Shown in pieces: positions 2,753 to 9,983 of a stretch of 64,000 nucleotides of DNA. Source of the stretch: Clostridiaceae bacterium (GTDB lineage Bacteria; Bacillota; Clostridia; Saccharofermentanales; DTU023). The notes under the pieces are model-generated. The model had not been told where the DNA came from. It did not search any database and saw nothing but the letters and a program-made list of their open reading frames with translations. The translations under genes and the position numbers were made by a program. Each line of letters begins with the position of its first letter. The stretch's first letter is position 1. The DNA is taken from NCBI GenBank assembly GCA_012521015.1, contig JAAYNE010000093.1, positions 1,420 through 65,419 on the forward strand. Reading direction: 5' to 3'.

Positions 2753-3910
2753 TTACACACCATAATCTACTTTAATCATGTCGTATCGCAACCTACCTTT
2801 TTCGGTAAGACAATATATTTTTCTTTCATGATTACGGTGAACAAACCCTTGATCAATTAAGCGATTAAGTCTGCGTTCAGTTGTTTCTTGATCCCAATAC
2901 AAATGATCTTTAATTGTCGCAAAACCGAGCTCAAACTCTGCATCTTCTTGATCTTCGTGATTACCTAAATGCATAATCAGCAAATCAAGTCTGAATTCTT
3001 TACGATTTTTATGTCTTAAATATATAGCAGTAATAATACCTTGACGGTTTAAAAGAACCGTCATAAAGGTTGTGAAGCCTGTGGTTACCGCAATCATTCC
3101 CGAAATAGAAACATTGAATGCAATTGCTAAATAAAAACCTGAAATTGAATTAAGTATTGAGAAGATAATCGATACTAAGAGCATCTTCTTGAGACTTTTT
3201 GTCAGCATATAAGCAGATGCCGCGGGACCGACAAATAAGGCAATAACCAGAATTGCTCCGACCGCATCGAAGGCGGCAACCGCTGTAAATGAGGTCAAGG
3301 TCATTAATCCATAAAAAAGAAGTCCGGAAGAAAATCCAGCTAAAGTTGCAAATTCCGGATCAAAGCTACTGATTTTTAATTCTTTTATAAATACCACAAC
3401 AAAGATCAAATTGATCAACAATATTATTAACATATAAAATAATGCTTTCGGTAATTCTACACCGAAAACTGTCATTGTATTTAGCGGAATCATAATCACT
3501 TGTCCCATTAAGACAATATCTGTATCAAGATGAACATTACGAGCAAATGTACTGATTAAAATAACGGCTAATGAGAAAAACAAAGGAAAAATTATGCCGA
3601 CAGCATCATCATTTTTAACCAAGCGAGTTTTCGATAACAAACCAATTGCATAAACTGTAAAAACACCGAATACACTTGCTCCGATCAATAAAAACGGTGA
3701 ATTCAAATTTTTAGTTACAAAATATGCCAACACGATACCTAGCAAGATTGAGTGGGAAAGTGCATCCGTCAGCATTGATAATTTATTCAAAACCAAAAAA
3801 CAACCGAGAAGTGAACAAGCGATTCCGGTAACAATCAAGGTCAGCAACATCTGTTGATTGTAATTGAGAAAATCTAACATTTTAGTCAATAAGAGATTTT
3901 GATAAATCAT
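2753..3910 (-). CDS. Metal ABC transporter permease (ABC-3/TroD-MntD type) with C-terminal winged-helix-like extension
   Basis: 385 aa; multi-TM ABC-3 core (~285 aa) followed by ~95 soluble residues (…ATIKDHLYWDQETTERRLNRLIDQGFV…LTEKGR) with a wHTH-like pattern. 29-nt overlap with the upstream permease gene. Confidence 0.8.
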   Translation of the reverse strand: MIYQNLLLTKMLDFLNYNQQMLLTLIVTGIACSLLGCFLVLNKLSMLTDALSHSILLGIVLAYFVTKNLNSPFLLIGASVFGVFTVYAIGLLSKTRLVKNDDAVGIIFPLFFSLAVILISTFARNVHLDTDIVLMGQVIMIPLNTMTVFGVELPKALFYMLIILLINLIFVVVFIKELKISSFDPEFATLAGFSSGLLFYGLMTLTSFTAVAAFDAVGAILVIALFVGPAASAYMLTKSLKKMLLVSIIFSILNSISGFYLAIAFNVSISGMIAVTTGFTTFMTVLLNRQGIITAIYLRHKNRKEFRLDLLIMHLGNHEDQEDAEFELGFATIKDHLYWDQETTERRLNRLIDQGFVHRNHERKIYCLTEKGRLRYDMIKVDYGV

Positions 3911-4853
3911 TTAAATATTTTCTCCTTCGCAGCCAATTAGCCAGTAAGCCTTTAGGTGAAATGAACATTGAAATGAAAGCTAAGCCGGACATCACCACAA
4001 TTATACAAGGTCCGGTTGACATTCCGGCATAAACACTTGAAATATAGGTACCGACAAAAGCCGAAAAACTGCCGACAATGGCGGCAATAATTAAGACATA
4101 GCTGAAACGATTGCTCCATTGTAAAGCCGTGATTCCCGGTACAATTAAAAATGAAGAAATCAAAATAGCACCGACTAATTTCAGGCCGGTAGCAATCACA
4201 CTCATTGTAATTAACACTAGCAAAACATACATCAATGTTGAGTTCAGACCGATCGATTGAGCATAAACCTCATCAAAAACAAAAATTTTAAATTCTTTAT
4301 AAAACAGAAAAAGAATTAATAACGACGGTATCGCAACTATCAAAATTAAATGGACATCAATTGTTCTGATAAAAGCGGCTTGTCCAAAGATATAGTTGCT
4401 CAAACCGCCTTGCGGCACTTTGCCGTAAACAGGATGCCCTTGGATAAAGCTTTTGAGAACCATACCGAGACCAAAAAATGCCGAGAGAATTGTTGCTAAA
4501 ATTGCATCCAGGTTTAATTTGGAATTTTTATCGATGAACTGAATAATAATAAAAGCCAGAGTGCCCGAAATAATTGCCCCGATCATTAAAGAAACTGAAT
4601 CCAAGCTCATGCTGATCATAAAAGCTAGAATAATTCCCGGATAAGATGAATGGCCGATTGCATCTCCAATCAGAGATTGTCCCTTCAAAACTGTTATTGT
4701 GCCGACCATTCCTGCAACTGTAGCTAAAATCATCGTACCCAGACAAACTACAATAAAGGTATAACTACTTAATATTTCAAAATCTAAGCCGATTGCATTG
4801 AGCAGATTGGCAAAATTTAAACTGAATATTTTATTTAGAAAAATACTAAGCAT
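3882..4853 (-). CDS. Metal ABC transporter permease (ABC-3/TroC-MntC type)
   Basis: 323 aa polytopic membrane protein; overlaps the ATPase gene by 8 nt and the next permease by 29 nt. Confidence 0.85.
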   Translation of the reverse strand: MLSIFLNKIFSLNFANLLNAIGLDFEILSSYTFIVVCLGTMILATVAGMVGTITVLKGQSLIGDAIGHSSYPGIILAFMISMSLDSVSLMIGAIISGTLAFIIIQFIDKNSKLNLDAILATILSAFFGLGMVLKSFIQGHPVYGKVPQGGLSNYIFGQAAFIRTIDVHLILIVAIPSLLILFLFYKEFKIFVFDEVYAQSIGLNSTLMYVLLVLITMSVIATGLKLVGAILISSFLIVPGITALQWSNRFSYVLIIAAIVGSFSAFVGTYISSVYAGMSTGPCIIVVMSGLAFISMFISPKGLLANWLRRRKYLNDLSKSLID

Positions 4854-5580
4854 TTATTTTAAAACCTCCGCCCATATCAGCAGCATCAAGATTTGCTTGG
4901 GTTAATGTTTCGGACATTTTACCTTGGGCTATTATTCTCTTATTGAGAATGACCAAATGATCAAAATAATCAGCTAAAGTATTCAAATCATGATGGATAA
5001 CAATCGATGTTTTGCCTTGCTTTTGTGAGTCTTTCAAAAAGTCGATAATTACTTTTTCCGTATTTTTGTCGACACCGGCAAGCGGTTCATCCATGAAATA
5101 TATTTCTGCATTCTGCGCAATCGCCCTGGCTATAAAAACTCTTTGTTTCTGACCACCGGACAATTGCGAAATCTGACGTTTGGCATAATCTTGCATCCCC
5201 ATTTTATGCAATGCATTTTTGGCAATTTCTATATCCTTTTTTCTAGGTCTTTTAATCCAGCCAAGATGGACATAACGCCCCATCAAAACTACATCTAAAG
5301 CTGTTGTCGGGAAATCCCAGTTTACACTGTTTGACTGGGGAATATATGCAATTTTTTTATAGATTTGTTTAACACTTTTGCCCATGATTTCAACCGTTCC
5401 GGACAATGTTTTTTGCAGACCGAGAATACCTTTTAATAAAGTTGACTTACCTGCCCCATTAGGGCCGATAATTGCTGTCCTGGAGTTTGCGATAATACTG
5501 ACATCGTTATCCCACAATACCGGTTTATCGTGATAGGCCATTGTCAAATCTTCAACTTTGACAATTATATTCTCTGACAT
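4846..5580 (-). CDS. Metal ABC transporter ATP-binding protein
   Basis: Walker A GPNGAGKST, signature LSGGQKQR, Walker B IYFMDEP. Start moved to the ATG at 5580 (preceded by AAGAGGGA RBS) rather than the ORF-track start 5634. Confidence 0.85.
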   Translation of the reverse strand: MSENIIVKVEDLTMAYHDKPVLWDNDVSIIANSRTAIIGPNGAGKSTLLKGILGLQKTLSGTVEIMGKSVKQIYKKIAYIPQSNSVNWDFPTTALDVVLMGRYVHLGWIKRPRKKDIEIAKNALHKMGMQDYAKRQISQLSGGQKQRVFIARAIAQNAEIYFMDEPLAGVDKNTEKVIIDFLKDSQKQGKTSIVIHHDLNTLADYFDHLVILNKRIIAQGKMSETLTQANLDAADMGGGFKINA

Positions 5581-5702
5581 ATTTCCCTCTTTTACTCTCA
5601 AAGCTTTTTCGTCTTTATTTAACAGTACTTTCACTTGTTATTTCCTTGTAAAAACATAATTTCCCGACTTCAATAAATTATATTTAATCTTTATTCGGCA
5701 GA

Positions 5703-6785
5703 TTACTTTAAATTCTTCACGATTAAATCCACATTATGGGTAAACATATCGATAAAGTTATCGCCCGGTTGACCTTCCGGAGCCAAAGAGTCGGAAAACA
5801 ATTCCTGACCTTCACCGCTGACAACTTTTACATCAAATCCCTGCGCTGCCGCTGCTTCCTTCAGTTTTTCCATACGAGCCGGATCGGTTGTTGTTTCAGC
5901 AAAAACGGCTTTTATTTCTTTCTCTACTATAAAATCCACGGTGTTTTGAATATCTTTATTCGCAACTTCAGAATCGGTACTTATACCTTGAGGTGCCATA
6001 ACCGGAATATCGAAAGAACGCGAAAAGTAGTTGAATGCATCATGCGGTGTAATTAAATAACGTGAATCTTCCGGGATCGAATCAAGTTTTTCTTTAGATT
6101 CTTCAAACATAACTACTAGCTGCTCATTATATTCTTCCGCATTCTTTGCGATTGTATCGGCTGCTTCCGGTAATAATTGACTCAAATATTCTGCGGTATT
6201 ATTAACGGCAAGTTGATATAATTCAAGATCGAACCAAAAGTGAGGATCAATAATTAAATCACCATCTTGATCCATTGCCCCGACTCGATCTGCCGGGAAG
6301 TCCTTGGCTAAAGCGTATCCGTAATTTTCCAGAACATCTACCATTTTTCCCTCAAAATGCAGTCCGTGATAAATGACCAAATCGGCATCTGTGATCTTTT
6401 GCAAATCTTGCGGTTTCGGTTCATAGAGATGCGGATCGTCACCAGCAGGAATAATCATATCTATATTTACAAAGTCTTCCGCCAGAACTTTTACGATATC
6501 TGCAACAAAAGTTGTCGTTCCTGTAATAACAGGCTTATCACTACCGGTATAAGCTTCAATTGTATTATCTGATTCTGTTTCAGCATCTTCCGCATCTACA
6601 TTTTCTGTTTCTGCATCTTCAGTACCTGCATTTTTGTCTTTCACATCTTCTATTTCTACCTCTTCAATCTCCGGATTTTTCGCCTCTGAATCTTCAGAAG
6701 TTGTTTCGTTTGAATTTGTTCCACATGAACTGACTAATAACACAAAAGCCATTAATAATGACACTAATAAACTGATTTTTTTCAT
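5703..6785 (-). CDS. Metal (Mn/Fe/Zn) ABC substrate-binding lipoprotein, TroA/PsaA cluster A-I, with long acidic linker
   Basis: Lipobox LLVSSC; DPHLYEP and DPHFWFD metal-site motifs. ~60-aa E/D-rich tether after the lipid anchor. Start taken at the ATG at 6785 (GGAGAAAGAGGA RBS). Confidence 0.85.
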   Translation of the reverse strand: MKKISLLVSLLMAFVLLVSSCGTNSNETTSEDSEAKNPEIEEVEIEDVKDKNAGTEDAETENVDAEDAETESDNTIEAYTGSDKPVITGTTTFVADIVKVLAEDFVNIDMIIPAGDDPHLYEPKPQDLQKITDADLVIYHGLHFEGKMVDVLENYGYALAKDFPADRVGAMDQDGDLIIDPHFWFDLELYQLAVNNTAEYLSQLLPEAADTIAKNAEEYNEQLVVMFEESKEKLDSIPEDSRYLITPHDAFNYFSRSFDIPVMAPQGISTDSEVANKDIQNTVDFIVEKEIKAVFAETTTDPARMEKLKEAAAAQGFDVKVVSGEGQELFSDSLAPEGQPGDNFIDMFTHNVDLIVKNLK

Positions 6786-6952
6786 TCCTCTTTCTCCATT
6801 CTTTGCTTGTAAAATCAAGCATTTGTTCGTTTATTCGTTTCTCTCATTTTATTTAACAGCTTTTTACTTAGACCCTAGTTTTGGAAGGAAAATATACCTC
6901 AAAACTTGAAAATATCATCTTTATCAAAACTGCTATCGCAAACATAAAAAAC

Positions 6953-6971
6953 TAGTTAGGCACACCTTACA
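6953..6971. promoter_or_regulatory. Candidate metalloregulator operator (site 1, imperfect)
   Basis: tAGTTAG-GCACAC-CTTACA; 2 mismatches to AGTTAG-N6-CTAACT; downstream of the putative -10 of the metal ABC operon. Confidence 0.4.
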
Positions 6972-6987
6972 GTTTCTATTTAACATC

Positions 6988-7005
6988 AGTTAGGCGCGAC
7001 TAACA
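6988..7005. promoter_or_regulatory. Candidate metalloregulator operator (site 2)
   Basis: AGTTAG-GCGCGA-CTAACA. Sits in the 17-nt spacer of a plausible minus-strand promoter (TTGTTA 7006..7001, TTAAAT 6983..6978). Confidence 0.5.
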
Positions 7006-7247
7006 AATTTAAAAGAAAATTTCATGCAAACCGCTATATCATATTGGAATTTTTCGATTATTATTTAGATAATTAGTAAAATCAACTCTTGATTAATGTT
7101 GGTATTATATATTTCAAAATCTGCAGAAGTCTTTTTAAGTATATTTAGTTACGGAATTTCACTGATTATTACCCGGGAAAAAGCAGGAGCAAAAAAAGCG
7201 TTCGCTACACCTTCAAATTTCTGTATTTACTTCTATTCTTTATAACA

Positions 7248-7287
7248 TTATTGGTCTCATTATGCCCGGGCATAATGATACCAATAA
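7248..7287 (-). terminator. Long hairpin downstream of the feo operon
   Basis: 40-nt near-perfect palindrome TTATTGGTCTCATTATGCCC/GGGCATAATGATACCAATAA (one mismatch), 20 nt after the stop of the small Cys-rich gene; no strong U-tract. Confidence 0.5.
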
Positions 7288-7306
7288 AACAAGCGCTTTT
7301 CAATTA

Positions 7307-7483
7307 TTATAGGTGTCTTAAATTGTCGCAATTGGAACCGCTGTAGTATTTACTTCTGCACTGTTTAGCATAAGGACAACCGGTACAGGCTGTACCTTGC
7401 TTTTTCCTACGCCTCGCTAAATACCATATTATACCTACAACAATAGCAAGTATTATCAGCGCAACTACAATGTTTTCCATCAT
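7307..7483 (-). CDS. FeoB-associated Cys-rich small membrane protein (not in ORF track, 58 aa)
   Basis: Manual translation: MMENIVVALIILAIVVGIIWYLARRRKKQGTACTGCPYAKQCRSKYYSGSNCDNLRHL. One TM helix, a basic stretch and Cys-rich tail, immediately 3' of feoB as in the known family. Confidence 0.75.
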   Translation of the reverse strand: MMENIVVALIILAIVVGIIWYLARRRKKQGTACTGCPYAKQCRSKYYSGSNCDNLRHL

Positions 7484-7506
7484 AATAAATTCCTGTTTTT
7501 CTGAAG

Positions 7507-9513
7507 TTAGTTCCTTGCACCGGACAGAGCATACTCGCTATTCAGCTTTTTGTTAGTGTTTCTAATAAGACCAATCACAATGGCAGCCATAGCAACTATC
7601 ACAACAAAACCGCCAATTGCAGCGCCAATGTGAAGAGCCCCGCCGGTGACAATTGTACCGATGGTATAAACGAAATATGCTACAGCATAGCCGGTACCAA
7701 GCTGGAGTGCAACACCACCCCAAAACCATTTAGCACTTCTCATCTCGGAGTTCATGGCACCCATAGCGGCAAAACAAGGAGGAGTATACAAATTAAACAT
7801 CAGATAAGCGAGAGCTGCAACCTTTGTAATTGCCATAATACCTGCAACCTCCATGCCGGCGCCTTCCATAAGGGCAAACTCTTCGGTATCAATCAGGTTC
7901 TCAAGTCCAACAAAGGTAACTGCAAGAGTGCCTACAACGTTCTCTTTTGCGATAAGACCGGTAACAGCTGCTGCGGCAAGCTGCCAAGACATAACGCCAA
8001 CAATCGGAAATAGCAGGTATGCAAAGGGTGATGCGATGGAAGCAAGGATAGATTGATCTGCGGACTCAACAACTCGGAAACTCCATGAGAAAGTTTGCAT
8101 CAGCTGCACTGCCAGGTTGCAAAGCAAGATAATCGTAGTAGCATTAACGATAAAAGCCCAGCCACGCATACACATGGATTTGAAAGCGCCCCAAAGGGAA
8201 GGGACCTTGTATTCAGGGAGTTCTATGATAAAGAAAGATTTTCTTGCTTTATAGCCTACAATCTTGTTCACCAGAAGTGCGCCGAGGAAAATCAGCAGAA
8301 TACCGGTAAAGTACATCAAGGTACTCACCCAGCCTGCATCATCGAAGAATGCTCCGGCAAAGAGAGCAATAACAGGAATCTTCGCACCACAAGGAACAAA
8401 TGGAGCAAGCATAGCGGTCATTCGTCTTTCGCGTTCGTTACGGATGGTACGGCTTGCCATAATCCCGGGAATTGCACAACCGATGCTGATGACGAAAGGA
8501 ATTACTGACTTGCCGGATAAACCAACCCTTTTGAAGATGGGATCAAGTACAACGGCAACACGGGACATGTACCCACATTCCTCCAATAAAGCAATCAGGA
8601 AATACATAACCATAATAAGAGGCAGGAAACCGACAACGGCAATTACACCGCCAATGATGCCGTCAACAAGAATAGTCGAAAGAAGCGGGCTTGCATCCGC
8701 AAGAAGATCGCCTACCCATTCTTGGAATGTTTCCAGCCAGCCCACAAGTAAATCGGCGACAGGAGTACCTACCCAAACCTGCGATATTTGAAATACCAGA
8801 AACATTACAACTGCAAAGATTGGAATGCCGAGCCACTTATTTGCAAGTACAGCATCGATCTTATCACTTAAGTTCTTTTCCCTGGTTAGAACCTTACGGG
8901 TCTCAACGGCGTTTACAATATTATTGACAAATTCGAAACGCTTACGGTCAGCAGCTTCAATTATATCTTTATCAGTCAAATCGATATCGCCTTGCACATA
9001 AGGAGCCTTCTGAACATTGCTTACATGTGTAAGAGCCGCTTCAACAACAGTATCAAGACCTGTGCCGGAAGTAGCAACCGTGTTAATAACAGGACAGCCA
9101 AGCTTCGCCGACAAGGCTTCCACGTCAATTTTCGTACCTTTTTTTTCATTAAGATCGCTCTTATTCAAAGCAACAACAACAGGAATTTCCAGCTCTAAAA
9201 GCTGGGTAGTGAAAAAAAGGCTGCGACTGAGATTGGTAGCATCTACAATGTTGATAATAACATCAGGATTTTCTTTCTTTACATAGGAACTGGTAATGCT
9301 CTCTTCACTGGTGAAAGGAGACATAGAGTATGCACCGGGAAGATCAACAGCAAAAACTGACTGCTCACTCTTTGCATACATTTTCTTAATAGGGTGTTCT
9401 TTCTTATCTAAAGTCACTCCTGCCCAGTTACCTACTTTTTCACTGCGACCGGTTAAAGCATTATACATTGTGGTCTTGCCTGAATTCGGATTACCTGTCA
9501 AAGCAATTCTCAT
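7507..9513 (-). CDS. feoB: Ferrous iron transporter FeoB
   Basis: 668 aa; N-terminal G domain (GNPNSGKTT, DLPGAYS, NKSD) plus polytopic gate domains. Confidence 0.95.
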   Translation of the reverse strand: MRIALTGNPNSGKTTMYNALTGRSEKVGNWAGVTLDKKEHPIKKMYAKSEQSVFAVDLPGAYSMSPFTSEESITSSYVKKENPDVIINIVDATNLSRSLFFTTQLLELEIPVVVALNKSDLNEKKGTKIDVEALSAKLGCPVINTVATSGTGLDTVVEAALTHVSNVQKAPYVQGDIDLTDKDIIEAADRKRFEFVNNIVNAVETRKVLTREKNLSDKIDAVLANKWLGIPIFAVVMFLVFQISQVWVGTPVADLLVGWLETFQEWVGDLLADASPLLSTILVDGIIGGVIAVVGFLPLIMVMYFLIALLEECGYMSRVAVVLDPIFKRVGLSGKSVIPFVISIGCAIPGIMASRTIRNERERRMTAMLAPFVPCGAKIPVIALFAGAFFDDAGWVSTLMYFTGILLIFLGALLVNKIVGYKARKSFFIIELPEYKVPSLWGAFKSMCMRGWAFIVNATTIILLCNLAVQLMQTFSWSFRVVESADQSILASIASPFAYLLFPIVGVMSWQLAAAAVTGLIAKENVVGTLAVTFVGLENLIDTEEFALMEGAGMEVAGIMAITKVAALAYLMFNLYTPPCFAAMGAMNSEMRSAKWFWGGVALQLGTGYAVAYFVYTIGTIVTGGALHIGAAIGGFVVIVAMAAIVIGLIRNTNKKLNSEYALSGARN

Positions 9514-9576
9514 GGATTTCCTCCTTATTTCTTATCCTTAAAACATTATTCCTTGTAATTAAAATTTTATATTCCT

Positions 9577-9594
9577 AGTTAGCATTCACTAACC
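9577..9594. promoter_or_regulatory. Candidate metalloregulator operator (site 3, feoA-feoB intergenic)
   Basis: AGTTAG-CATTCA-CTAACC, 64 nt upstream of the feoB start. Confidence 0.5.
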
Positions 9595-9634
9595 TTAGCT
9601 GAAAAAAAAAGCTCCTTGATCATTTTCTTACCAT

Positions 9635-9859
9635 TTAGATTTGAATGGCTTCGGCTAACTGGTTGTCAATATTATAACGGGCATCCTTAATGGAAACCGT
9701 ACAACCACCTTTGCGATGAGCAACAACTGTAATTGCTTCACCGATGTAGCATCCAAGAGAAAACAGAAACGCATTTAACTCTTCGTCATCAGTATTAATC
9801 TGGCGGATAGTGTATTCTCTACCTTCAATAGCACTTTTTAACGTCATAAATGGCCCCAA
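9635..9859 (-). CDS. feoA: FeoA family iron transport protein
   Basis: 74-aa SH3-like FeoA pattern (…REYTIRQINTDDEELNAFLFSLGCYIGEAITVV…). True start may be the second ATG at 9847. Confidence 0.85.
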   Translation of the reverse strand: MGPFMTLKSAIEGREYTIRQINTDDEELNAFLFSLGCYIGEAITVVAHRKGGCTVSIKDARYNIDNQLAEAIQI

Positions 9860-9930
9860 AAGTATTCTTTAGTATTTTCAACATATAAAAGGCATTCATT
9901 TAATAACAACCAGCTTATATGATAAAAAAT

Positions 9931-9948
9931 AGTTAGACACTACTAACT
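9931..9948. promoter_or_regulatory. Candidate metalloregulator operator (site 4, perfect palindrome)
   Basis: AGTTAG-ACACTA-CTAACT, beginning 7 nt downstream of the putative feoA -10. Confidence 0.55.
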
Positions 9949-9954
9949 GTAGAA

Positions 9955-9983
9955 ATAGTATTCCATATTCTCGCATTTGTCAA
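9955..9983 (-). promoter_or_regulatory. Putative sigma-A promoter of feoA
   Basis: Minus strand TTGACA (9983..9978), 17-nt spacer, TACTAT (9960..9955). Confidence 0.5.

Follow-up and report, generated by a model that had tools for sequence, protein, structure and literature searches.

The iron box of actinobacterial DtxR and IdeR (TTAGGTTAGSCTAACCTAA) spans 19 bp, with the pentamers GTTAG and CTAAC 1 bp apart, and is bound by two dimers of a three-domain protein that includes an SH3-like domain. In enterobacteria, the MntR box reads 5'-AACATAGCnnnnGCTATGTT-3', that is AACATAGC-N4-GCTATGTT, in the form quoted in PMC1698941, and the TroR motif of Haloferax volcanii, TTTAGGC-NNN-CCTAAA, occurs in tandem copies spaced by ~30 bp (PMC10783522). 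In Treponema, the troABCDR operon described in PMC2628430 encodes a substrate-binding protein (SBP), an ATPase, two permeases, and a DtxR-like regulator, with an 18-bp dyad operator at the promoter; according to the same paper, T. pallidum TroR lacks the SH3 domain, and a mutated T. denticola operator (AGCTTCATATTTCAAAAT) contains neither GTTAG nor CTAAC. Here, we analyze a 64-kb stretch of Clostridiaceae bacterium DNA (the window; GenBank GCA_012521015.1, contig JAAYNE010000093.1, positions 1,420–65,419), in which the palindrome AGTTAG-N6-CTAACT occurs four times in front of the ferrous-iron uptake genes feoA and feoB and of an ATP-binding cassette (ABC) operon for metal uptake.

The four copies occupy positions 6954–6971 (site 1, AGTTAGGCACACCTTACA, two mismatches), 6988–7005 (site 2, AGTTAGGCGCGACTAACA, one mismatch), 9577–9594 (site 3, AGTTAGCATTCACTAACC, one mismatch), and 9931–9948 (site 4, AGTTAGACACTACTAACT, no mismatch) of the window, on the minus strand, like all genes and promoters of the window given below. 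All are intergenic. Sites 1 and 2 are the proximal and distal predicted operators of the operon for a ZnuA-type SBP and ABC-3 permeases, site 3 lies in the feoA–feoB gap, and site 4 in the feoA promoter, the genes being identified by Pfam. An earlier, sequence-only reading of this DNA had reported all four copies, with the first placed one nucleotide off at 6953, together with their location in promoter regions of metal-uptake genes and the separate copy in front of feoB, and had judged the clustering to exceed chance. Apart from the start of site 1, these claims are borne out. With up to one mismatch, the window contains 3 matches against 0.09 expected, and none of 100 dinucleotide shuffles reaches 3; with up to two mismatches, it contains 9 against 2.58 expected, a number likewise reached in 0 of 100 shuffles. 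On score matrices built from sites of related genomes, the five further two-mismatch matches score at most 9 bits, less than the weakest training site (10.7 bits). For the four sites, the better-fitting matrix gives 20.6–24.1 bits, and nothing comparable exists elsewhere in the 64 kb. They have the general form of a DtxR/MntR operator, a palindrome of ~18–20 bp with TTAG.../...CTAA half-sites. In our judgment, the four palindromes are probably conserved operators of DtxR/MntR-family metal repressors, falling into two related classes with two probable binders.

We examined conservation in a scan with FeoB as the query, restricted to one genome per species, which yielded 80 loci (1.25 Mb) from uncultured or little-studied Clostridia and their relatives; sites were counted at up to one mismatch. 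The closest locus (L001, 95% protein identity) belongs to a Saccharofermentanales metagenome-assembled genome. This search finds the motif strongly conserved, with 151 sites and at least one site in 70 of the 80 loci. Of the 151 sites, 123 are feo-linked: 78 within 400 bp upstream of feoA, 43 in the feoA–feoB gap, and 2 before feoB genes whose contig does not include feoA. A gap site is found in 42 of the 80 loci. The other 28 sites are all intergenic and precede genes for flavodoxin, a FecCD permease, DUF2325, DUF3793, ABC transporters, a P-type ATPase, a lipoprotein with a ZinT domain, and DtxR-family proteins; leaving aside the ZinT-domain gene, such a set is typical of iron starvation. The feo-linked box is the predicted operator of an iron-starvation regulon widespread in Clostridia. 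In aligned, diverged intergenic regions, the sites stand out as footprints, in which GTTAG and CTAAC are unchanged and spacers and flanks vary. Specifically, both pentamers of site 3 are invariant across six diverged genomes, the half-sites of site 4 are invariant in L001 and in a second locus, L002, around a variable spacer, and site 2 is conserved in L001. Tandem feo-type boxes are most often 33–34 bp apart (11 of 22 close pairs in the 80 loci), and sites 1 and 2 of the window, 34 bp apart, fall into the same spacing class.

Individual feo-type boxes in other Clostridia stand directly before DUF2325 genes, DUF3793 genes, and a flavodoxin gene (L015 12606, L021 5201, L026 4359, L042 9851, L052 12056; L008 8147/8170, L056 12674; L067 12335). 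Because such boxes directly precede them, DUF2325 and DUF3793 are predicted to belong to the iron-starvation regulon. L001 also carries a pair of overlapping feo-type boxes, 14 bp apart (4309–4340), before the genes for a His-rich lipoprotein with a ZinT domain and for a second transporter of the ZnuA type.

The sequence-only reading had treated the four copies as one shared operator. This does not hold: the sites fall into two classes that differ in the innermost base of each half-site. The feo box, AGTTAG-Y-N4-R-CTAACT, to which sites 3 and 4 belong, has C (68%) or T at position 7 and G (64%) or A at position 12 among the 123 feo-linked sites, with G at position 7 on four occasions and C at position 12 on one. 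The tro box, AGTTAGGC-N3-CCTAACT, to which sites 1 and 2 belong, was defined from 16 unique box sequences upstream of SBP genes in loci with orthologues of the window regulator, which were gathered by exact look-up and a metagenome scan. G7/C12 is found in 30 of 32 tro half-sites versus 5 of 234 feo half-sites (Fisher p = 4e-32). The two matrices separate the sites of the window accordingly, with feo and tro scores of 4.6 and 24.1 bits for site 1, 17.3 and 23.9 bits for site 2, 22.8 and 6.7 bits for site 3, and 20.6 and 13.6 bits for site 4. The sites of the ABC operon are tro-type, site 2 being a partial hybrid, and those of the feo genes are feo-type. Because both classes occur within one genome, at a distance of 2.6 kb, and do so in L001 as well, their difference is no lineage effect.

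Both classes resemble described operators, and the six-base spacing, which the sequence-only reading had taken for a variant geometry, is already normal for MntR boxes (PMC1698941) and for the archaeal TroR motif (PMC10783522). The feo box shares the palindrome geometry and, in its consensus, the TAGC-N4-GCTA core of the enterobacterial MntR box as quoted in PMC1698941; its outer half-site bases are GT/AC instead of CA/TG, and its regulon comprises feoAB, flavodoxin, and FecCD genes, whereas that of enterobacterial MntR is mntH. Within the window, site 3 (C7/A12) and site 4 (A7/A12) are degenerate beside the MntR-type C7/G12, which the family consensus retains. The tro box, sites 1 and 2 included, shares the core TTAGGC-N3-CCTAA with the Haloferax TroR motif, each of the two window sites matching this TroR/Idr-type core with one mismatch (site 1, TTAGGCACACCTTA; site 2, TTAGGCGCGACTAA). 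Both elements occur in tandem ~30 bp apart before metal-uptake genes, and the binder, established or predicted, is in each case a DtxR-family repressor. However, the Haloferax system is archaeal, whereas the tro box is found in bacterial Clostridia, is flanked by G instead of T (GTTAGG), and serves an ABC operon of the ZnuA type whose last gene encodes the regulator. With the actinobacterial iron box, the window boxes have in common the GTTAG/CTAAC pentamers, the protein family, and the role as a repressor site at iron-uptake promoters. The pentamers are 6 bp apart here rather than 1 bp, and the regulators have two domains; an IdeR-type iron box was rejected on the 6-bp spacing of all four sites and of all related sites. 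An operator of the Treponema TroR type was likewise rejected for lack of resemblance, judged against the mutated T. denticola sequence of PMC2628430. The spacing is therefore a known geometry, and the window probably contains two sibling operators with different regulators rather than one shared motif. A literature search found no description of such boxes in Clostridia, curated regulons (RegPrecise) lying outside that search, and a transcriptome paper on Faecalibacterium feoAB names no motif or regulator.

A small DtxR-family gene, type A, adjoins feoAB in 33 of the 80 loci; the window regulator alone as the query had given 13 loci, and type A queries raised the count to 33. In 27 of the 33, the gene is divergent from feoA, and 23 of these 27 have a box in the shared spacer. 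As with the regulator genes of tro-box operons, DtxR-family genes thus adjoin the motif in many genomes, in agreement with the earlier assignment of the motif to this family. Type A proteins (~125 aa) are 31–37% identical to the window regulator, are closest to MntR of B. subtilis and E. coli, and form a very large family, with at least 7989 significant matches. Like enterobacterial MntR, they consist of two domains without an SH3 domain. The metal ligands read Asn/Glu/His/Cys/Glu/His, compared with D/E/H/E/E/H in MntR: Asn replaces Asp8, and Cys replaces Glu99 in 133 of 133 type A sequences, at the position of DtxR Cys102. Metal selectivity in the family distinguishes DtxR (M10/C102) from MntR (D8/E99), and, together with this knowledge, the ligand set of type A points to Fe(II), not Mn(II). 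Type A scores 86 bits against the 153-bit cut-off of NCBIfam NF008273 and falls below every NCBIfam MntR cut-off; on these scores and the different ligands, it was rejected as an orthologue of Mn-sensing MntR. Neither type A nor the window regulator, which we call type B, reaches any NCBIfam equivalog cut-off. At the recognition-helix position equivalent to DtxR Q43, type A has Val or Ile and type B has Glu (E40), a residue that may plausibly determine the preference at positions 7 and 12. Type A is the most likely predicted binder of the feo boxes and hence of sites 3 and 4. This provides a concrete operator and a candidate regulator for feoAB, flavodoxin, FecCD, DUF2325, and DUF3793 across uncultured gut and digester Clostridia, whose iron regulation has until now mostly been assumed to be Fur-type.

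Small DtxR-like genes of a third group closely follow feoB and the FeoB-associated gene (L010 4127–4513, L037 12210–12608, also L018, L021, and L026). The two that were aligned (L010 and L037) have the recognition helix SVHSML and lack the Glu/His ligands at MntR positions 102/103. In L010, a box is located immediately upstream of this gene.

The tro boxes point to the regulator encoded in the window itself. Downstream of sites 1 and 2, the window encodes the SBP, a ZnuA-family (cluster A-I) metal-binding lipoprotein (5703–6785; Pfam ZnuA, E = 5.5e-66), an ABC ATPase (4846–5634; Pfam ABC_tran), an ABC-3 permease (3882–4853), a second, long ABC-3 permease (2753–3910), and type B (1905–2342; Pfam Fe_dep_repress and Fe_dep_repr_C), a TroR/SloR-like, two-domain DtxR-family regulator without an SH3 domain. 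This is the gene order of a tro-type operon (troABCD-troR) and matches that of Treponema, as do the dyad operator at the promoter and the absence of the SH3 domain from T. pallidum TroR (PMC2628430); the window differs in that the regulator gene is set off from the operon by a 165-bp repeat and the second permease carries a winged-helix-like tail. Type B contains the two N-terminal domains only; its nearest solved structures are SloR and then ScaR, and its ligands are Asp, His, Asp (or His), Glu, and His at the positions of B. subtilis MntR D8, H77, E99, E102, and H103. At nearly every locus with the upstream region on the contig, type B orthologues are the last gene of operons ordered SBP, ATPase, permease, long permease, and DtxR-family gene, the SBP gene of these operons is preceded by a tro box, and every tro box collected lies ahead of an operon with a type B gene at its end. 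Because of this linkage, type B is the natural candidate to bind sites 1 and 2. At orthologous loci, the type B gene overlaps or closely follows the last permease gene, so that it would be autoregulated through the same box, in agreement with the absence of a box before the gene: the matrix scan of the window found none upstream of the DtxR-family gene, as the sequence-only reading had noted.

The DtxR-family gene of the window is bracketed by two direct copies of an intergenic repeat of ~165 bp (1715–1877 and 2586–2760, 82% identical), seen only in this genome (also L091). L001 shares the block from feoA to the permease without the repeats and without a DtxR-family gene after the permease. 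The repeats around the regulator and the lack of both in L001 suggest that the gene was inserted or lost by recombination.

Several observations weigh against the assignment of the two classes to two repressors. The whole outer AGTTAG/CTAACT is common to both classes, both matrices give site 2 a high score, and site 4, at 13.6 bits on the tro matrix, comes near the lowest tro training site (14.7 bits); one regulator could cross-bind both classes. The tro set is small, with some of its 16 unique sites taken from related genomes. The feo-type double box before the ZinT-type protein of L001 fits a purely iron regulon poorly. A type A gene was found neither in the window nor in the 10 kb past its left edge and is assumed to lie elsewhere in this genome, and the metal specificities proposed here are deduced from ligand residues only. 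The main alternative is a single regulator with a single motif, in which the local DtxR-family protein (1905–2342) would bind all four sites and co-regulate feoA, feoB, and the ABC operon. Its gene is the only one of the family in the window and lies ~4.6 kb from the nearest site, AGTTAG/CTAAC is common to all four sites, two of which score on or nearly on both matrices as described above, feoAB and the ABC genes form one block conserved with L001, and T. denticola TroR is reported to respond to Mn as well as to Fe (PMC2628430). However, the rarity of G7/C12 in feo half-sites, which the feo sites of the window obey, against its near-constancy in tro half-sites separates the classes, it is a different paralogue that lies divergent from feoA in 27 of the 80 genomes, and L001 retains all sites without such a regulator after the permease. 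We regard this alternative as unlikely, if worth keeping in mind. The sequence-only reading had proposed this protein as a binder; it remains a good candidate for sites 1 and 2 and not for sites 3 and 4.

The same reading had offered a second candidate, the winged-helix tail of the long permease. Only residues 18–284 of this permease match Pfam ABC-3, and a conserved, cytoplasmic extension of ~100 residues follows (res. 286–385; 2756–3055). Matches of this tail to winged-helix families are sub-threshold, hhalign against the DtxR N-terminal domain gives 91% probability, and together they indicate a winged-helix-like fold, as had been suggested. The invariant residues form the motifs H-x-G-N-H, ELG, HLxW, and YxLTxxG. 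The tail is present in all tro-like operons examined and absent from the solved homologue PsaC; a homologue search with the tail alone returned one fragment only. A single-sequence AlphaFold model was discarded for its low predicted local distance difference test score (pLDDT 46). Since the tail co-occurs with type B wherever the long permease is found, except in L001, the two cannot be separated by distribution. The tail could in principle be the DNA-binding module for the boxes, making the transporter a membrane-tethered regulator, which would agree with its winged-helix-like character, its occurrence in every tro-like operon examined, and its presence in L001, where no DtxR-family gene adjoins. 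Against this stand the uniformly sub-threshold family matches, the unusable model, and a distribution that carries almost no signal independent of type B; moreover, feo boxes occur in 70 of the 80 loci and such a permease is nearby in just one (L001), and a soluble DtxR-family repressor is the established binder for this core. This less economical reading is very improbable. Finally, chance matching or a repeat without regulatory function, for which the AT-rich background is the sole point in favor, is contradicted as an explanation of the boxes by the shuffle statistics, by same-position conservation in 70 of 80 diverged genomes, and by the footprints, and can be taken as refuted.

Like other operators of the DtxR/MntR family, the sites overlap promoters of metal-uptake genes, the feoA promoter being the strongest of three. 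The feoA gene (9635–9859; Pfam FeoA, E = 2.6e-12) is preceded by a sigma-70-type promoter (9955–9983) with a –35 element TTGACA (9983–9978), a 17-nt spacer, and a –10 element TACTAT (9960–9955), which has 10 of 12 matches in a consensus scan and hexamers conserved in L001 and L002. Site 4 starts 7 nt after this –10 element, as the sequence-only reading had stated and the promoter scan confirms. The putative promoter of the ABC operon, TTGTTA (7006–7001) and TTAAAT (6983–6978) with a 17-nt spacer, is weaker, lies below the scan threshold, and was read by eye. Site 2, described earlier as sitting in a promoter spacer, overlaps its –35 element and spacer, and the start of site 1 follows its –10 element by 7 nt; the same 7-nt geometry at feoA supports this putative promoter. 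Site 3 is located 5 nt upstream of a –10-like hexamer, TATAAA (9571–9566), in a putative promoter of feoB that is likewise weaker and was also read by eye (feoB, 7507–9513; Pfam FeoB_N, Gate, and FeoB_C; NCBIfam TIGR00437 above cut-off). This arrangement and the gap boxes found in 42 of the 80 loci speak for an internal feoB promoter that is repressed separately. A run of 8–9 T on the gene strand (9602–9610), ~10 bp upstream of the gap box, is shared by six genomes that have otherwise diverged and may represent an UP-like element or what remains of a terminator after feoA.

We propose that, when metal is plentiful, a metal-loaded repressor dimer would occupy the promoter and block RNA polymerase, from an operator that either starts 7 nt past the –10 element or covers the –35 element and spacer. 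When metal becomes scarce, the repressor would leave, and the uptake genes would be transcribed. Sites 1 and 2 would be bound by the TroR/SloR-like regulator (1905–2342) encoded just downstream of the ABC operon, and sites 3 and 4 by the small MntR-like type A paralogue, here necessarily encoded outside the window. In this scheme, the identity of the binding proteins, the metal sensed, and repression are presumed. More speculatively, and as a possibility that falls short of probable, two paralogous DtxR-family repressors in one cell may tell near-identical operators apart by G/C versus C/G at positions 7/12 together with a Glu versus Val/Ile switch in the recognition helix. This would give separate iron control of feoAB and manganese control of the ABC operon, with cross-talk at site 2, would make the Cys-bearing, MntR-like protein the main iron sensor of many gut and digester Clostridia, and would perhaps let the permease tail couple transport to regulation. 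The locus offers a natural system in which to study how two paralogues of the DtxR family discriminate between such operators. The assignments sort the genes of the window into those likely induced by iron limitation and those likely induced by manganese limitation and can help to annotate the iron and manganese regulons of uncultured Clostridia.

Downstream of feoB, the window encodes a FeoB-associated, Cys-rich membrane protein (7307–7483; Pfam PF12669). An Rfam scan of the window, including the boxes and the leader of the ABC operon, gave no family match, so neither the boxes nor this leader correspond to a known riboswitch or RNA. The leader extends for ~185 nt (6786–6971) from the proximal box, at the putative transcription start, to the SBP start codon, and its 90% identity to the L001 sequence does not exceed that of the flanking genes. 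The SBP gene likely starts at ATG 6785 and not at TTG 6818; a ribosome-binding site with the ATG, a lipoprotein signal (MKKISLL...SSC), and a 360-aa gene called in L152 support this start. In one low-coverage (2x) assembly of the same locus (L151 6682–9590), the ABC genes are called as fragments, which is probably an assembly error and not pseudogenization because three other assemblies are intact.

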